The notes below the pieces were generated by a model. It worked only from the letters and a program-made list of their open reading frames with translations. It searched no databases and was not told where the DNA came from. From IMG/VR virus record IMGVR_UViG_3300009152_000046, positions 2,425 through 66,424 of that record: DNA of 64,000 nt; one strand, given 5' to 3'. The stretch comes from a virus. Below, in pieces: positions 9,962-60,426 of this stretch. A program made the translations under genes and the position numbers. How positions within the stretch are numbered: the first letter of the stretch is position 1; the number at the start of each line of letters is the position of its first letter.

Positions 9962-10766
9962 CTTTTTCTTTTTTTGGAATTGGGCCTTCTCCCTTTGTCC
10001 ATTGTTTAAGATCTTCCAATGCATACCACCCATAATTATCCTGCGAGTCTTGTGGATTGAGCCAAAAGGTTATTTCCTTTTTTGATTCGTCTTTCCAACG
10101 AGGTGAAAGAGCATTAAACTTTTTGCCGGCTTTTTCAAGTATCTTATGAATACCTGTATTAACTACTGCTTTTTCCAAGTCTAATCTATCTTGGTCAGTA
10201 TCAGTCATTGATTTTTTAAAATCTTCAGGTATTCTAGACACGATCGCAATAACTAGTCCGCCATTTTTAAATGCACCAGAGCCACCAGTCCAAATTGCAA
10301 TATCCTTATTTTGAAAAGCGGTTACAAACTCATCGCAAATTAACTCGTCTTCAACTAAAAATAAGAATCTAGACTCTGCCCAAAAACCAAGTACTGAGTC
10401 TCTAGTTGGATCCCAATGCGAAGACTTAGTTAACCATGAATAATCTGAATTGACTCTCCATGAATCCTTCATCGCAATACCAAACAATTTCTTTTTGGTG
10501 CGCTTTACGCTTTTATCCATCGACCACTGTGGAACCTCAAGTTCTACCTTTTCAATGATACTGTCGCACTTAGTTATTGTACGTGAGTCAATTCCGATCT
10601 TTGGAGATTTTATTCCAAAAAAAGATTTTTCCGAAGAAATACCAAAGCGACTATTGATTCCTTTGATACCCCATTCATGTTCTGCACAGTAATCTGCACC
10701 TAAATTAACTGCAATAATTTCTTTGTCATCACCAATCCAGAATTGGCCATCTGTTCCTTTTCTCAT
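9951..10766 (-). CDS. hypothetical protein
   Basis: 271-aa ORF within an operon. Confidence 0.7.
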   Translation of the reverse strand: MRKGTDGQFWIGDDKEIIAVNLGADYCAEHEWGIKGINSRFGISSEKSFFGIKSPKIGIDSRTITKCDSIIEKVELEVPQWSMDKSVKRTKKKLFGIAMKDSWRVNSDYSWLTKSSHWDPTRDSVLGFWAESRFLFLVEDELICDEFVTAFQNKDIAIWTGGSGAFKNGGLVIAIVSRIPEDFKKSMTDTDQDRLDLEKAVVNTGIHKILEKAGKKFNALSPRWKDESKKEITFWLNPQDSQDNYGWYALEDLKQWTKGEGPIPKKEKDDQ

Positions 10767-11068
10767 TATATTAAATCAAATTTAGTTCCTAACTTTTGTT
10801 CTAATTCTTCAAGTGAAAATTTGTGAAATGCGGCAGAAAGTAATTCTAGTTTTTCTTGTCTTACTAAACCTCCGTCCATTCCTCGATCTTCGAAAAAGCC
10901 TACTGTTGCTAGATTAGAGTTGAGGTCAGACACTGCTTGAGCAATATTTTTCAATTCATCCTCACTAGCATAATCGTCGATGTATTCAATAATATCATCG
11001 TAATCAATTTCGATGTCAGCATCAACGTCTTTATACATCGTTCTGCCTCTTTTTCTTCCTTTTGTCAT
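10766..11068 (-). CDS. hypothetical protein
   Basis: 100-aa ORF within an operon. Confidence 0.65.
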   Translation of the reverse strand: MTKGRKRGRTMYKDVDADIEIDYDDIIEYIDDYASEDELKNIAQAVSDLNSNLATVGFFEDRGMDGGLVRQEKLELLSAAFHKFSLEELEQKLGTKFDLI

Positions 11069-11074
11069 GATTTT

Positions 11075-11644
11075 TTATTTTAAATAGTTAATGATTTTTT
11101 CTTTAATTCCACACTGTTTTATTCCTTCTTTTGATTTAGGAGTTAACACAAAATTTTCTAATCCCCAATCTTCTCTCTTTTGCATTTGCAAGTCATCGAC
11201 TGCAACCCAATGGGTAATCTCAGTATGCTCGCGTAAATACTGCAATATTTCTAGAGTACGACACTGTTCTCGATCCCGATTATATTGCCATGGAAAATCT
11301 TTAGGTTGTTCACAATTCTTCAAATCCGGAGTAAAGGCAATTGGTTTTTTTGCGATTCCTTGTTGTTCATAATAGTCTCCCATCTCCTCAACGTTTGCAA
11401 AGTTTTTCCAGTCAGAACTAACTACGATTTCTGCGTCAGTTTCTTCTAGGATTTTATTCAGTACAGTGATGGCTTTTTTATCAAAGTCGTCGAATCTACA
11501 GTCTACTGGCAATCCATAATTTGGAGAAGACATTTTAGGTTTTATGTCAGACTCTCTGTAAAATTTATCTTTTTTCTTTGCGCGACCTCCCCAGTTTTCA
11601 GCAAGGCAAATCACTCCATCATGATCTAAAAATATTACTTTCAT
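11075..11644 (-). CDS. HAD phosphatase of the Swiss-Army-Knife RNA-repair type
   Basis: MKVIFLDHDGV, IVVSSDW and WVAVDD motifs. Confidence 0.8.
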   Translation of the reverse strand: MKVIFLDHDGVICLAENWGGRAKKKDKFYRESDIKPKMSSPNYGLPVDCRFDDFDKKAITVLNKILEETDAEIVVSSDWKNFANVEEMGDYYEQQGIAKKPIAFTPDLKNCEQPKDFPWQYNRDREQCRTLEILQYLREHTEITHWVAVDDLQMQKREDWGLENFVLTPKSKEGIKQCGIKEKIINYLK

Positions 11645-11670
11645 ATTGTATAATTTTTGTTTTACATACT

Positions 11671-11722
11671 TATAACAAAGTGTAAAAAACATTAAAACGA
11701 TTTTTTACACTCAACCGTTATA
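11671..11722. mobile_element. attC-like hairpin site 1
   Basis: TATAAC-aaa-GTGTAAAAAA-cattaaaacga-TTTTTTACAC-tcaacc-GTTATA. Confidence 0.6.
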
Positions 11723-11930
11723 AAGAATTTATTGTTAAATAAGTTAAACAATCTTCAACACACTCATCAATAGTGTCAAAACCGAACCAATTTCTTGTTT
11801 TTACTCCATCAACATCCCAAATATATTTGTAATAAGTTTCCTCACTTTTTGTTCTCATTACCTTTTCAATCTTAACAACATTTCCTGAGTTGAAGATTGC
11901 TCTCATTTTTTCTTCTAATGTAAATTCCAT
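11718..11930 (-). CDS. small hypothetical protein carried on a putative gene cassette
   Basis: 70 aa; its stop codon lies within the TAAC core of the downstream hairpin. Confidence 0.65.
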   Translation of the reverse strand: MEFTLEEKMRAIFNSGNVVKIEKVMRTKSEETYYKYIWDVDGVKTRNWFGFDTIDECVEDCLTYLTINSL

Positions 11931-11962
11931 CGTATTTTATATTTTATTGTTAATAAACTCTT

Positions 11963-12014
11963 TATAACAAATGATAAACAACATTAAAACGATTGTTTAT
12001 CATCGGACGTTATG
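11963..12014. mobile_element. attC-like hairpin site 2
   Basis: TATAAC-aa-ATGATAAACAA-cattaaaacga-TTGTTTATCAT-cggac-GTTATG. Confidence 0.6.
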
Positions 12015-12059
12015 CCCAGATTTTCTAAAGATATTATACTAAAATTTTAATAAATAATA

Positions 12060-12186
12060 AAGACCGGCGGACTTAAATGTCCCACATTAGGACCGGTTAT
12101 AGTTTAGGCTATAAGAAAACGTCGACCTCGCTAGTCGACGTTTTCGCTTTCTATCGACCTGCGGTAAGTTTGTGTTTTACTGCAAG
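12060..12186 (+). ncRNA. candidate structured small RNA downstream of a late promoter
   Basis: Late box at 12050; several hairpins, including a 12-bp GAAAACGTCGAC/GTCGACGTTTTC stem; G-U pairs favour the + strand. Confidence 0.35.
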
Positions 12187-12226
12187 CTATTATCATAACT
12201 TAATAATACTACAAGTTTTGATAAAA

Positions 12227-12256
12227 TAAAAAAGGATCTCAAAAAGAGATCCTTTA
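12227..12256 (-). terminator. intrinsic terminator
   Basis: AAAGGATCTC-aaaaa-GAGATCCTTT with a T-tract on the minus strand. Confidence 0.75.
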
Positions 12257-12276
12257 GCAAGAGCCTGACGTTAAAT

Positions 12277-13032
12277 TTAGAATTGAGTGCCGCAGCTTGG
12301 ACAGAACTTCCAATTTGCATGTTTGATGCGAGTTCCACAGTTACTACAGTAATTGCGAATGTCTGATGCCTCTACTGGTTTGCTAGATTCTGGTAAGATC
12401 TGTAGTTCAATTGATTTTGAACACCAACTAGAATAATTAGACGAATCACTGCTAAACTGTTGGCTTGACATTTCTCCTCGTTCTGCACGACCAGTCTCAA
12501 GTGAACCAACTGGCTGCAAATTAGAATTAGTAAACGAAGCATTTACTCCAATTGAACCAGTAAGATCAGCTGAAGTGTTAGAATAAAGACAGTTAACTGT
12601 AGTGCCTCCAAATACTGGAGGATTCCAGTGCTGTGGTCCGGTTGTGTAAACATATGTTGAGATAGACGGATAGTTAATCGTCTGTTCATCATAGAATTCT
12701 ACACGGAGTTTTCCATTATCCGCAATTGCTTCCTTCGCGTCAGTTGAATCCTCAACTTCGTAGGTTTCAAAGAGGAATTTTTTTGACTCATCAAGCCATC
12801 GTTCTAAGAAAACTCTTTGGCCTGGACGAATCACAATTCCAGATGAGGAAATTGAGATCCCATTCAAGTAGATCTTTGCGAGAATTTTTATACTTTTTGG
12901 ATTGAATAATTCTATCTCAAAGTGAGTCTTGTCTTTAAGATAGACTTTATCGCCGTAGTGTTTAAGGCGATTTCGGTTTACTGCGATAGTCGCAGTGGGT
13001 TGTTGCCAACCTGTAAGTGTTGTATGGTACAT
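12277..13032 (-). CDS. beta-rich protein with C-terminal zinc ribbon
   Basis: C-terminal YCSNCG...FCPSCG. Confidence 0.75.
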   Translation of the reverse strand: MYHTTLTGWQQPTATIAVNRNRLKHYGDKVYLKDKTHFEIELFNPKSIKILAKIYLNGISISSSGIVIRPGQRVFLERWLDESKKFLFETYEVEDSTDAKEAIADNGKLRVEFYDEQTINYPSISTYVYTTGPQHWNPPVFGGTTVNCLYSNTSADLTGSIGVNASFTNSNLQPVGSLETGRAERGEMSSQQFSSDSSNYSSWCSKSIELQILPESSKPVEASDIRNYCSNCGTRIKHANWKFCPSCGTQF

Positions 13033-13143
13033 AGTTTACCTGATTATTTTTAATTAAGCAAACGTCTTTATGGCGATGAAACCATTCTAAAGCCACTAGG
13101 ACTCGACGCCGACTAGAGTGTCAGGCTCTTATAGTTATATACT

Positions 13144-13455
13144 CTAAATGGTAAAAGAGGTTTCGTTGACTGGGATTACTTGATAATTAGGAGGTCCCAT
13201 TTGCTTGTCGTACTTTAGGATAAAGTTAAAAAGCAAAGAAATTTCAGCAAAGTCGCTATAGTCAATTTCCTTACCCATTTTTTCAGAAAGCTTGATCTCG
13301 TTTCCAGTATCGAGTGCAGACAAGATTAATTTATTAGGATAAGTCCAGTGGCTTGCACTAGAATAATGTAATGAATATTTAGTACCAGCATCTATATCTT
13401 CTACGAAAATTTCGTATTCATGTTTATTATTTTCAAATACTTTAAATTCCTTCAT
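13144..13455 (-). CDS. hypothetical protein
   Basis: 103-aa ORF. Confidence 0.65.
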   Translation of the reverse strand: MKEFKVFENNKHEYEIFVEDIDAGTKYSLHYSSASHWTYPNKLILSALDTGNEIKLSEKMGKEIDYSDFAEISLLFNFILKYDKQMGPPNYQVIPVNETSFTI

Positions 13456-13898
13456 CTTCTTTTTTTATTTAATAAATCCTTTAATCTTTTAATTTCAGCA
13501 ATTACATCATCACCTAATTCAATTTTAGACATCATTGATAAGTCTACCACTTGAGAGTATAATACATCAATTAACTCTTGTTGTACTTTGATTGTTTCTT
13601 CGTTATTCATCTTTTTTCTTTCGTTTATTATTTCTATTAGTGCATTACCGTGGCATAATTTGGGTGCACACCAGCACCCGAGAGTCTTTCCTTCTAACTC
13701 ATGTAAATGATCTAATAACCATTTACCGTCGCCTTCTAGAATCCACTCCTTGTATTTCTGAACGGCTTCTTCTCGACTAGCAACAATAAATTGTGCGGCG
13801 GTCTTTTTATCAGCGATATGGGTAAATGGATTCCCCCATTTGCTCGGTCGTCCGATATACACGTCGTGTGGGTCCCTTTTAAAATGTACTACTTTCAT
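13452..13898 (-). CDS. DUF4326-family protein with C-terminal extension
   Basis: VYIGRPSKWGNPF and LGCWCAPKLCHG motifs. Confidence 0.85.
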   Translation of the reverse strand: MKVVHFKRDPHDVYIGRPSKWGNPFTHIADKKTAAQFIVASREEAVQKYKEWILEGDGKWLLDHLHELEGKTLGCWCAPKLCHGNALIEIINERKKMNNEETIKVQQELIDVLYSQVVDLSMMSKIELGDDVIAEIKRLKDLLNKKRR

Positions 13899-25892: not shown

Positions 25893-27317
25893 TTATTCTA
25901 CTTCTTCCTCTTCAACTTCTGCAACTGGTACTTCTTTCTTCTTTGCAAGGCGCTTGAGATATTTTTCAAGTTCAAACTTCGGAACTATTATTGAATTTAG
26001 ACCATACGTAGTTATTAATGATAGATACTCAGCAAAATTGCTTTCTGGAATATCTGCATCAGGATTACCGATAATCTTCCAAAACTTTTCTGGAACTTCT
26101 ACTGATGCTAGTGACTCTTGGTCAACTACATAAAGAGGATATATCTGATCGTCAGTTAATGGTTTTTTACTCTTTATGGTTATTACATCGATGCTACGTT
26201 TTAGATGTATGTCTATTGCACCAACTTTCATGGCAGCAAGTAACTTATTTACAGGTTCAATAATTAACATAAAGAACTGATGGTTCATATCGATCGGCAC
26301 AGCAAGCTCTGCTGGAAAACTTGCAGGGGAGTAGGCAAATACATCAAAATTATGCTCATTTGGTGCACAGTGATAGAATTTAATCTTATCCTTTTCTCTA
26401 AGTGGAGCATACTTTGCATTTAATCCGGTCTTAATAAGAAGATGATTATAATACGCTGCAGATCTTGCGAATATTGATATGCCTTTTCTTAAAGAACAGG
26501 TTTCAATATTATCAATATACTTATCAAATACTGTAATTTTAAAGTTTAGCGCAACATCATCTATTGATAGGCCATTAAATTCTTCTTTTAATTCCTTTAA
26601 TTTAGGAAGAACATCGCGTTCAAGATCTAGAGTCTTTCCTATCTCCATGATATATTCAGTAAGAGCAACAAGTTTTTTTCTTGCCCAGACTGGATACGAG
26701 CCTTTAATTGAATCTAATCCCTTTATGACTAAGTATCTCTTTTCATTAGTCATTAGTTCCATTGCTGGATTTGGGTCATACGCTACTTTAATCGCATAAT
26801 TCTTCTTCTTTAGCCAGATACCGTATTCTGATAAGTTTTCAAGCTTAAATTTAAGACGATTTCGAGTATTAAAGATTCGCCCGTATTTTTCAAAGCAGAT
26901 ATCAAAATATTTAGAAAGACGATTATTGTCTATCGCGACGCATATCTTTAAAGCTTCTTCTCGAGTAAAGGTCGCACCCTCAATTGAATGGATTGCAGAT
27001 TCAAACTGCACATAAATGGAGTCAGTGTCTGTATAAATTGCCGCTTCTTCTGTAATTTGATTTATTTTATACTTATCAATACCTAGGAGTTGGTGTAGCT
27101 CAGTATCGAGGTGCCAACGATCCATAAAGTAGTGGTTTACTGCCTTAATGCTAAACTTAATTAGGTCCTGACCTTGTAAAGTAATCGATTGGGCAATATC
27201 TGGATTATAGAAATAAAACCATTTGTTACCAAAAGCTCCATAAATGGAATTAATTAAGATTTTTATCGCGTTTTGCTTAAGATCGAGCTTTTTGATCTGG
27301 TTTGAGTTGTCTTTCAT
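25893..27317 (-). CDS. family B DNA polymerase, C-terminal subunit only (split gene)
   Basis: Begins at motif B KILINSIYGAFG; motif C YTDTDS; KKKNYA; no exonuclease domain or motif A. Confidence 0.85.
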   Translation of the reverse strand: MKDNSNQIKKLDLKQNAIKILINSIYGAFGNKWFYFYNPDIAQSITLQGQDLIKFSIKAVNHYFMDRWHLDTELHQLLGIDKYKINQITEEAAIYTDTDSIYVQFESAIHSIEGATFTREEALKICVAIDNNRLSKYFDICFEKYGRIFNTRNRLKFKLENLSEYGIWLKKKNYAIKVAYDPNPAMELMTNEKRYLVIKGLDSIKGSYPVWARKKLVALTEYIMEIGKTLDLERDVLPKLKELKEEFNGLSIDDVALNFKITVFDKYIDNIETCSLRKGISIFARSAAYYNHLLIKTGLNAKYAPLREKDKIKFYHCAPNEHNFDVFAYSPASFPAELAVPIDMNHQFFMLIIEPVNKLLAAMKVGAIDIHLKRSIDVITIKSKKPLTDDQIYPLYVVDQESLASVEVPEKFWKIIGNPDADIPESNFAEYLSLITTYGLNSIIVPKFELEKYLKRLAKKKEVPVAEVEEEEVE

Positions 27318-54973: not shown

Positions 54974-55620
54974 AGTTTATCGAATGCCTCGATAGATATT
55001 TTTGGAAGATCGACTCTACTTGTAGCGCTAAGATTATATAACCCTACTCCTCTTTTTTCAAGAGCTATTCGATAACTATTGTATGCTGAGTTAACTTTTG
55101 GTAAATTCCTGATCTTAATAATTTGGTGTTGTCCATCCTTCGGATTGTAAAAATGACCGTCTGTAAAATCAACTCCAATTAAGCCAATATTCTTTGCGCC
55201 CATTTTATAGGCAAGTCCAATTGCAGTATATGGAGAATTTTGAAAATGGTCAAGATGGTTGGGCTTATCTAAACTTGAAATAGAGGTTGTACCTAATTCA
55301 AAATGAGCAATATTTTTGTGTCTCCAACCAGCAACACAGGTAAAGAGACACTTTGCAGTTGACTCATTGACGAGCTTACGACGAGAATCAGTAAATCTCT
55401 GTGGAACATCGGTAACTAACAGATAAGTCGGCTGAAACAGTGCAGGTACATCGTTTACCCCTATTGTGATATATTTTGAATAAATATTCTTAAGCTGTAA
55501 AAGAGAAGTACCACATCCGCACACAATAATCTTCGAATCGGGATGAATCCCAACAAATTCGCTCATATTTTTCAGTAGTGCTGACATTCGAGTAGAACTT
55601 TTTCTTTTTTTGTTATACAA
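54970..55620 (-). CDS. Maf/MptE-like putative transferase
   Basis: VCGCGTSL, IGVND, AYKMGAKNIGLIGVDF and YNLS motifs. Confidence 0.6.
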   Translation of the reverse strand: MYNKKRKSSTRMSALLKNMSEFVGIHPDSKIIVCGCGTSLLQLKNIYSKYITIGVNDVPALFQPTYLLVTDVPQRFTDSRRKLVNESTAKCLFTCVAGWRHKNIAHFELGTTSISSLDKPNHLDHFQNSPYTAIGLAYKMGAKNIGLIGVDFTDGHFYNPKDGQHQIIKIRNLPKVNSAYNSYRIALEKRGVGLYNLSATSRVDLPKISIEAFDKL

Positions 55621-60387: not shown

Positions 60388-60417
60388 ATAGAGAGCCCGT
60401 AAGCTCTCTATTTTTTT
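60388..60417 (+). terminator. intrinsic terminator after the capsid gene
   Basis: ATAGAGAGC-ccgtaa-GCTCTCTATTTTTTT. Confidence 0.85.
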
Positions 60418-60426
60418 GTTATAAGG

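Follow-up and report, generated by a model that had tools for sequence, protein, structure and literature searches.

We analysed a 64,000-nt stretch of a viral genome (positions 2,425 to 66,424 of the IMG/VR virus record IMGVR_UViG_3300009152_000046; the whole stretch is called the window below). Our subject is the region at positions 11,671 to 12,014, where an open reading frame (ORF) of 70 amino acids (aa) lies between two hairpin-forming sites with a common loop. The sites resemble the attC sites of integrons, and the segment between them has the appearance of a gene cassette. All genes of the region, encoding a zinc-ribbon protein, the 70-aa protein and a HAD_SAK_2-family protein, are on the minus strand, called here the gene strand, and each site stands just upstream of a gene.

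The site pattern, TATAACAAA-N30-50-CGTTAT, has exactly two matches in the window, both on the plus strand (11671-11721 and 11963-12013). In dinucleotide shuffles, which were used to set the chance level, the mean number of matches was 0.02, and two matches were reached in none of 100 shuffles. A covariance model scan of the complete 66,424-base record yields these two sites only. The original prediction, made from the letters of the sequence, described TATAAC...GTTAT sites of 52 bp; the sites stand, with the length corrected to 51 bp by the pattern. The other details of that description hold as well. Both loops are CATTAAAACGA, 11 nt long. The stems differ, GTGTAAAAAA/TTTTTTACAC in site 1 and (A)TGATAAACAA/TTGTTTATCA(T) in site 2, yet pair perfectly. 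The spacers are asymmetric in both sites, with AAA on one side and TCAACC or TCGGAC on the opposite one. Read on the gene strand, both sites consist of (A)TAACG, three unpaired bases, a 12-bp stem, the loop TCGTTTTAATG, the other stem half and TTTGTTATA; site 1 reads ATAACG-GTT-GA-stem-TCGTTTTAATG-stem-TTTGTTATA. This is the attC architecture: an inverted AAC...GTT core, an unpaired spacer, paired variable arms and a terminal loop. Folded as RNA of the minus strand, the sites have z-scores of -4.5 and -3.5, with equally good structures in 0 of 200 and 1 of 200 shuffles. As single strands they fold better on the gene strand (-17.3 and -16.8 kcal/mol) than on the other one (-12.4).

The stop codon TAA of the 70-aa ORF is the complement of TTA at 11718-11720, within the CGTTAT core of site 1, and thus the ORF indeed ends in the TAAC core, as originally proposed. 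The claim that the ends of the segment are complementary to each other, and the outer flanks are not, was also confirmed. Between 11717-11733 and 11952-11968, complementarity extends to 16 of 17 positions; the combinations present as is at the two sites give 10/17 and 10/17, and the two outer flanks 7/17. When the cassette ends were joined by a script, the result folded into one long hairpin of -29.8 kcal/mol, compared with -18.3 and -17.3 for the sites as they stand. The cassette limits given in Table 1 are putative, by analogy with the boundaries in relatives, and are ambiguous by the common CG (11716-11717 / 12008-12009).

Table 1. Features of the cassette region (positions in the window)
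Feature	Positions	Strand	Description
HAD_SAK_2-family gene	11075..11644	-	downstream of site 1; no site after the gene
Leader module AGTATGTAAAACAAAAATTATACAAT	11645..11670	-	separates site 1 from the HAD start codon
Site 1, stem type GTGTAAAAAA	11671..11721	-	directly upstream of the HAD-family gene; covariance model 83.7 bits at G000:14082-14156
Inferred mobile cassette, 292 bp	11718..12009	-	site 2 hairpin, leader, 70-aa ORF, complementary end stopping at TAA
70-aa cassette ORF	11718..11930	-	stop codon inside the TAACG core of site 1
Cassette end X	11718..11735	-	complementary to the stretch after site 2; 12/14 and 16/17
Stretch Y, immediately following the site 2 hairpin (gene strand)	11949..11968	-	would pair with 11718-11735 in a circular cassette
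Site 2, stem type TGATAAACAA (commonest type)	11963..12013	-	covariance model 74.3 bits; hairpin belonging to the 70-aa cassette
Non-coding stretch upstream of site 2	12010..12230	-	strong 12-bp hairpin at 12115-12145
Terminator-like hairpin and T-run	12231..12255	-	after the zinc-ribbon gene; separates it from the cassette region
Zinc-ribbon protein gene	12277..13032	-	local gene neighbour

The hairpin pattern is present in at least 118 viral stretches. Stem types were counted in 150 distinct instances with the exact loop: the stem has 12 bp in 121 of them, there are more than 12 stem types, and the commonest one, TGATAAACAA, accounts for 82 instances. For an alignment, 38 sequences were selected for diversity from 139 distinct ones, with at most eight per stem type and with short and broken forms dropped. 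In the upper stem, changes on both sides are seen in 10 of the 12 pairs, and 99.6% of the cells are paired; if the partner column is slid, pairing falls to 37-58%. On the gene strand, a G:U pair is kept at two places of the stem, in 38/38 and 34/38 sequences; TAAC and GTTA are found in 37-38 of the 38 sequences, and three to four bases are left unpaired, on one side only. The invariance of the loop is partly by construction, as the search patterns required it. Besides the loop, a TA within the stem is fixed.

The original prediction proposed that a covariance model be built and relatives scanned with it. The model finds 2-6 sites per related genome, these genomes being 220-360 kb in size, and none in the records of 50 relatives chosen without regard to the site. 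It also detects a second class of sites with long loops. The base is again TAACG...TTGTTA, and the stem has about 20 bp and the loop about 30 nt; G:T wobbles are seen on the gene strand in this class as well. The 136 instances that were examined are intergenic and have the same orientation as the genes. The TAA of TAACG is the stop codon of the upstream ORF in 27 of them, and a start codon follows 51-107 nt past the loop start in 90. The sites occur where small ORFs, most of them unique, follow one another, and each such region has one to five sites. Short forms were observed in L039, L068, L079, L118, L120 and L215:1957-2032, where the loop lies directly between TTGTTA(T/G)-N4 and N4-(A/C)TAACG. 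Their base motifs are in swapped order, and some of them immediately precede a standard site.

Complementary ends are not restricted to the window. We compared the 14 nt after each site with the 14 nt before the next one, with a threshold of 11 complementary positions. The threshold is reached by 10 of 45 distinct consecutive site pairs, and these ten are spaced 223-807 nt apart. When sites are compared with their own flanks it is reached in 0 of 45 cases, and random pairing reaches it 45 times in 5000 (0.9%). The window pair has 12/14. Among the complementary end pairs a T:G wobble recurs on the gene strand.

The borders of the homologous segments were considered in 23 pairs of instances in which the downstream 150 nt are at least 90% identical and the upstream DNA is unrelated. 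In 17 of the 23 pairs homology is lost at -24 to -20, immediately ahead of TAACG; among the pairs that deviate are two involving the chimeric site of L061, described below, and the tRNA case of L100. The same cassette is thus found in unrelated contexts with homology breaking at TAACG. One cassette family occurs in four contexts, where the upstream hairpin is kept and the end is at TATAACG. The 70-aa ORF of the window recurs in L115 and L422, preceded there by a site of the site 2 type and followed by a different structure, and in L421 the sequence with this ORF is shared through TTTATAA and diverges beyond it.

An insertion is seen in the stretch L100, where a 262-bp unit composed of the hairpin, a 71-aa ORF and X-TAACG lies between the halves of a tRNA-Met gene (L100:2739-3090). 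ARAGORN reports no tRNA in the sequence as it stands and tRNA-Met(CAT) after in-silico removal of the 262-bp unit. Thus the L100 phage carries a disrupted tRNA gene, as the cassette splits it. The target reads CG|TTAGGC, and the junctions have no more than CG in common with it. The original prediction expected that comparison of related phages would reveal precise gain or loss at the GTT boundaries; the cassette limits in relatives and this one insertion fall exactly at CG beside TTA/TAA. The boundaries are within the invariant TAACG, that is, CG|TTA on the other strand, and the sequence gives neither the exact phosphate nor the strand.

Further data come from lake metagenomes. These are contigs of four runs, which reveal neither RNA ends nor rare forms. 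Contigs break at 11716, 11991 and 12009. The depth in the DNA run X3 is 108 and 432 at the two sites and about 9 beside them, and over the lake DNA metagenomes it is ten to forty-five times that of the adjoining DNA. The raised depth and the contig breaks at the site edges fit the situation where many genomes share the sites in different contexts.

The original prediction recommended a search for an IntI-like tyrosine recombinase in phages or hosts. A tyrosine recombinase does stand at the end of site arrays in related phages, but it is an Xer-like enzyme in which the insert of IntI is missing. In 14 of 49 site-bearing records there is exactly one PF00589 protein scoring above the Pfam cut-off. 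These proteins are 204-293 aa long, and 13 of them have 265-293 aa. Sites found by the model lie within 1.5 kb at 10 of 12 recombinase loci that were fetched, and all 14 model hits are upstream of the recombinase on its strand, with none downstream. In G049, a genome of 362 kb rated 100% complete, six sites are located in about 10 kb upstream of the recombinase gene. As a control, 50 relatives were taken from the 80 identified by their HAD gene; sites are absent from all 50, and one has a recombinase.

The linked recombinase (268 aa) consists of an N-terminal SAM-like domain and a catalytic domain. Its score with the integron integrase family TIGR02249 is 158.6 bits (cut-off 265), and its best family is XerA-like, with 186 bits (cut-off 220). 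It aligns with IntI4 (2a3v) at residues 18-181 / 17-183 and 216-263 / 265-312. Between these blocks it has 34 residues where IntI4 has 81, a region that we take to be the location of the IntI-specific insert. In G005:54643-54705 and G040:6781-6843, genomes without a full recombinase gene, we observed a 32-aa frame whose match to the recombinase domain is confined to its final 20 positions (E about 3e-4); the frame is possibly a remnant. The fragment in G005 is within about 1.5 kb of the sites at 55352 and 56168.

The same family of sites, with the same loop, was found in 116 stretches of bacterial genome contigs. Among the 80 of these that were listed, 54 belong to Bacteroidota by title count. 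The carriers include isolates of Olleya, Lacibacter, Algibacter, Wocania, Wandonia and Polaribacter. A homologue of the recombinase is present at 5 of the 116 bacterial loci. L308 and L371, from Wocania and Algibacter chromosomes, contain single sites in which the left and the right flank can pair with each other (GGTTCGTTTAACG ... CGTTAAACGAAG), in contrast to the sites of phage arrays; the bacterial single sites may be solo or target sites. As the same sites occur in chromosomes of Bacteroidota, the hosts of these phages likely belong to this phylum as well, judging by sequence.

Among the phages of GenBank, 75 bases of the family match only the uncultured huge phage LR756500.1, in which the model has four hits within 20 kb, and the window segment 11000-13100 has no DNA match there. 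The phage of the window is distantly T4-like: its major capsid protein and portal protein are 37-39% identical to those of huge phages, and there are hits to thousands of T4-type records. No paper on this phage system was found by a full-text literature search, which is not a proof that there is none.

We consider it likely that the sites are attC-like sites of an integron-like cassette system common to a clade of freshwater T4-related large phages and to Bacteroidota chromosomes, and that the window contains one of its cassettes. This was the essence of the original prediction, a cassette system of the integron kind bounded by hairpins, and it is supported by the covariance model, the recombinase at array ends and the boundaries in relatives. 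The observations behind it are the architecture of the sites, their covariation, the complementary ends, boundaries across contexts, the tRNA insertion, and the co-occurrence and position of the recombinase. In the proposed mechanism a cassette would have the following order on the gene strand: CG, a hairpin with a variable covarying stem, TTTGTTA, Y (about 14 nt), a leader, a small ORF, X (about 14 nt) and TAA. The hairpin loop would be fixed as TCGTTTTAATG in this subfamily. Upon excision as a circle, X-TAA would be joined to CG, and the site would become one long hairpin. The cassette at 11718-12009 would stand before the second site, the one preceding the HAD gene. The Xer-like tyrosine recombinase would exchange strands at CG beside TAA, probably acting on the folded gene strand, which would be the counterpart of the integron bottom strand. 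Presumably it is this recombinase that performs the exchange, its substrate would be single-stranded, and the window cassette may still be mobile. The covariation and the strand-specific G:T wobbles suggest the single-strand mechanism.

Compared with integrons, the sedentary chromosomal ones in particular, the system has a number of features in common. These are hairpin sites with an AAC...GTT base, an asymmetric unpaired spacer and variable yet paired stems; cassette ends that would re-form one long hairpin in the circle; a putative crossover next to G|TT / AA|C; insertion into a secondary target resembling GTTAGGC, here in L100; and a tyrosine recombinase at one end of the array, pointing away from it when the sites are in the attC orientation. 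The sites within a lineage are nearly identical, as in integrons, where the Vibrio repeats are near-identical within a lineage. However, the enzyme of integrons is IntI with its insert, whereas here it is Xer-like and scores below the integron-integrase cut-off. A cassette ORF of an integron precedes its attC on the top strand and is expressed from the platform promoter Pc, and an attI site adjoins intI. The ORFs here are inverted: they lie on the strand that folds and have the site 5' of them. In the attC orientation the recombinase is at the position of intI, but the cassette ORFs face it. The carriers are large phages of the virulent type and Bacteroidota, and no attI or Pc was identified. 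Thus the system is an integron analogue and not a true integron, because the recombinase is Xer-like and has no IntI-specific insert; it departs from integrons proper in the integrase domain and in the cassette orientation. The window itself looks like a cluster of attC sites lacking integron-integrases (CALIN), with two sites 292 bp apart and no PF00589 in 66 kb. This is an analogy only, as the sites are not canonical attC.

Two other systems have been described that are close in some respects. In rAID-1 of Bacteroidales, an XerD-family recombinase is found beside small co-directional genes with intergenic repeats reminiscent of integrons (Ross et al. 2019, 10.1101/471110). Its criteria are an XerD-like protein more than 44% identical to BF9343_RS08045, located at the 5' end of at least two co-directional low-GC genes, with repeats between them. 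A Xer-type recombinase at an array of small genes and the host phylum, Bacteroidota, are common to both systems. However, the recombinase of rAID-1 is 5' of the co-directional genes, whereas here it is at the 3' end, and the cargo there is immunity genes; the comparison concerns layout, not repeat sequence. Qi et al. 2023 (PMC9892861) reported integrase-less clusters of the attC type in virulent phages, including a Polaribacter (Bacteroidota) phage. Here again phages carry cassette recombination sites. The sites of that paper were found with canonical models and were recombined by IntI1, whereas the sites considered here have a conserved loop, inverted ORFs and a Xer-like recombinase of their own.

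Several observations weigh against the cassette system or restrict it. Firstly, 35 of the 45 consecutive site pairs are below 11/14 in the end test; these may stem in part from other site classes or from several genes lying between the sites. Secondly, the site of L061 is chimeric within or beside the loop and not at TAACG. Its 3' half and loop are of the GTGTAAAAAA type and its 5' half is unrelated, a hint that the exchange was in or next to the loop instead of at TAACG. Thirdly, no isogenic uninterrupted copy of the L100 tRNA locus was found, and the insertion thus rests on the in-silico removal: among 82 loci with the intact junction motif none has the flanks of L100, and the two loci with the 5' half of this tRNA belong to unrelated phages. 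Fourthly, the strong conservation of the 11-nt loop is unlike attC, and the hairpin followed by TTTGTTATA, standing upstream of genes, could also act in transcription.

Other such points concern the window itself. It contains just one complete cassette. The leader of site 1 has no complementary partner end in the window, and neither does the outer flank of site 2. As no site follows the HAD gene and the flank of site 2 has no partner, the window holds one cassette and a terminal site. No junction of the circle type is listed among the metagenome contigs, which cannot show rare forms and in some runs leave parts of the stretch uncovered. The absence of an integrase from the window, noted originally, extends to the whole 66,424-base record, where PF00589 (Phage_integrase) has no match. 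The record is about 26% complete by CheckV, and thus only that part of the genome is covered. G001, rated 100% complete, has five sites and no recombinase. Sites can therefore persist without the enzyme, and the window cassette may be a relic.

A different explanation is offered by the promoter early stem-loops (PeSLs) of T4-type phages (Arbiol et al. 2010, PMC2839356; Comeau et al. 2014, PMC4122927). Under it, the sites would be regulatory cassettes, composite terminator and promoter motifs shuffled by homologous recombination between repeated motifs. In its favour are the distant resemblance of the phage to T4, the intergenic position of the sites, their common orientation with genes that start at the distances given above, and their location amid small ORFans. 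The hairpin is followed by a T-rich tail and TGTTATA(A/T), resembling an extended -10 element, TTGTTATA is found upstream of two further window genes, and leader modules move along with the site. PeSLs are likewise repeated intergenic stem-loops beside small ORFans in plastic T4-related regions, may overlap -35 or -10 boxes, and form small circles or mini-circles (PMC2839356). They are sigma-70 promoters, with consensus -35 and -10 boxes and AT-rich DNA upstream, and terminators, exchanged by homology, whereas here there are complementary cassette-specific ends, two-base junctions and a linked recombinase.

Other observations speak against this explanation too. The L100 insertion is not a homologous exchange, because its junctions share only two bases, and exchange by homology makes no prediction of complementarity between the ends of a cassette. 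There are just 2-6 sites per 220-360-kb genome, with a dedicated recombinase at the array end, and the same sites are present in bacterial chromosomes. Nor is a clear sigma-70 -35/-10 pair evident that would be specific to the sites: scanning near them for the sigma-70 consensus yielded only 9/12 matches, 13 in number against 10.9 expected in shuffles. The recurrent promoter-like motif of the phage is a different one, ATAAATAATAAAAA. Because of the linked recombinase, the complementary ends and the tRNA insertion, we downgraded this explanation and regard it as unlikely.

The sites could also function in RNA, as transcript processing sites similar to the RNase III sites between T7 early genes, as attenuators, or as sites of a phage RNA-binding protein, with the cassette features being secondary. 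The structure is indeed better on the mRNA-sense strand with its G:U pairs conserved, but the bottom strand of an integron would give an equal strand bias. A conserved loop is what protein-binding hairpins have, and contigs from the RNA libraries X15 and X16 run through the element in other contexts; however, these may be DNA carry-over, and the contigs show no ends. An Rfam scan of positions 10500-13500 gave no match at E up to 1, and the tRNA scan of the site region gave none. The complementary ends, the tRNA insertion and the linked recombinase are left unexplained by a function in RNA, which we likewise find unlikely as the primary role of the sites. Single-strand transposons such as IS200/IS605 or REP/RAYT, which depend on an HUH (Y1) transposase that recognises hairpins, would also be small mobile units ending in hairpins recognised by shape, with conserved short flanks, but PF01797 (Y1_Tnp) is absent from all five genomes searched (one of them rated 100% complete), the linked enzyme is a tyrosine recombinase, and the units carry unrelated small ORFs and stand in arrays, which leaves this possibility with hardly any weight.

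The 70-aa ORF has no match to Pfam or PHROG families. Its homologues form 45 protein clusters with 51-99% identity, none of them named, and its protein-atlas scores are all below 0.9. Site 1 together with its leader is 91% identical over 69 bases to L021 and L068, where this segment precedes a different gene family, and the leader module recurs together with the site before unrelated genes in other phages. The HAD gene is not a bounded cassette here, because no site follows it. Nor is it cassette cargo in general, as 80 related loci with HAD homologues (742 kb) hold no site. A 180-bp non-coding segment at 12009-12188, with a perfect 12-bp hairpin at 12115-12145, recurs in other lake phage contigs, where both flanks differ. 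The segment may encode a small RNA, be a cassette without an ORF, or serve as a docking site.

The motif (G)ATAAATAATAAAAA is located 15-25 nt upstream of many starts in the window (320, 7457, 27488, 31463, 38882, 56692, 60453), virion genes included. By its sequence it looks like a late promoter of the T4 type; the T4 late promoter consensus is TATAAATA. At 60390-60425 an ordinary G+C-rich terminator after the major head protein gene is followed by TTGTTATAAGG and this late-promoter-like motif. A copy of TTGTTATA is situated here, at 60416, after the terminator and before the ATAAATAATAAAAA motif. As an enriched motif TTGTTATA was rejected, with 4 copies in the window against 5.5 expected. 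The -33/-7 promoter motif of Bacteroidota is TTTG ... TAnnTTTG; a match of the site to it was considered by eye and rejected, as the spacing is one base off and there is no -33 partner. Finally, a 474-aa ORF at 25893-27317 on the minus strand matches only the C-terminal positions 501-839 of the 856 of a DNA polymerase family, and thus the DNA polymerase in the window may be split or shortened.

By itself the window is a modest find: it has a single orphan cassette and one further site, and the enzyme is missing from the sequenced part. The interest is in the system as a whole. Integrons are the textbook device for capture of gene cassettes, and they are thought to need the IntI domain that reads the extrahelical bases of the folded attC. 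We give even chances to a broader interpretation, that Bacteroidota and large phages possess a second, independent gene-capture machine of the integron type. In such a machine a minimal Xer-like enzyme would read folded hairpins via the 11-nt loop and the TA of the stem, and each cassette would have its site, and expression signals of its own, 5' of the gene. In this way small genes would be traded by virulent lake phages with one another and with host chromosomes, even being inserted into tRNA genes. If a plain Xer-like enzyme runs the system, then recombination of folded hairpins arose, or works, without the IntI domain. Small ORFans of large phages are often genes of host takeover or anti-defence, and a parallel system would supply a mechanism for their fast turnover. 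It would also point to direct exchange of genes between the chromosomes of Bacteroidota and their viruses.

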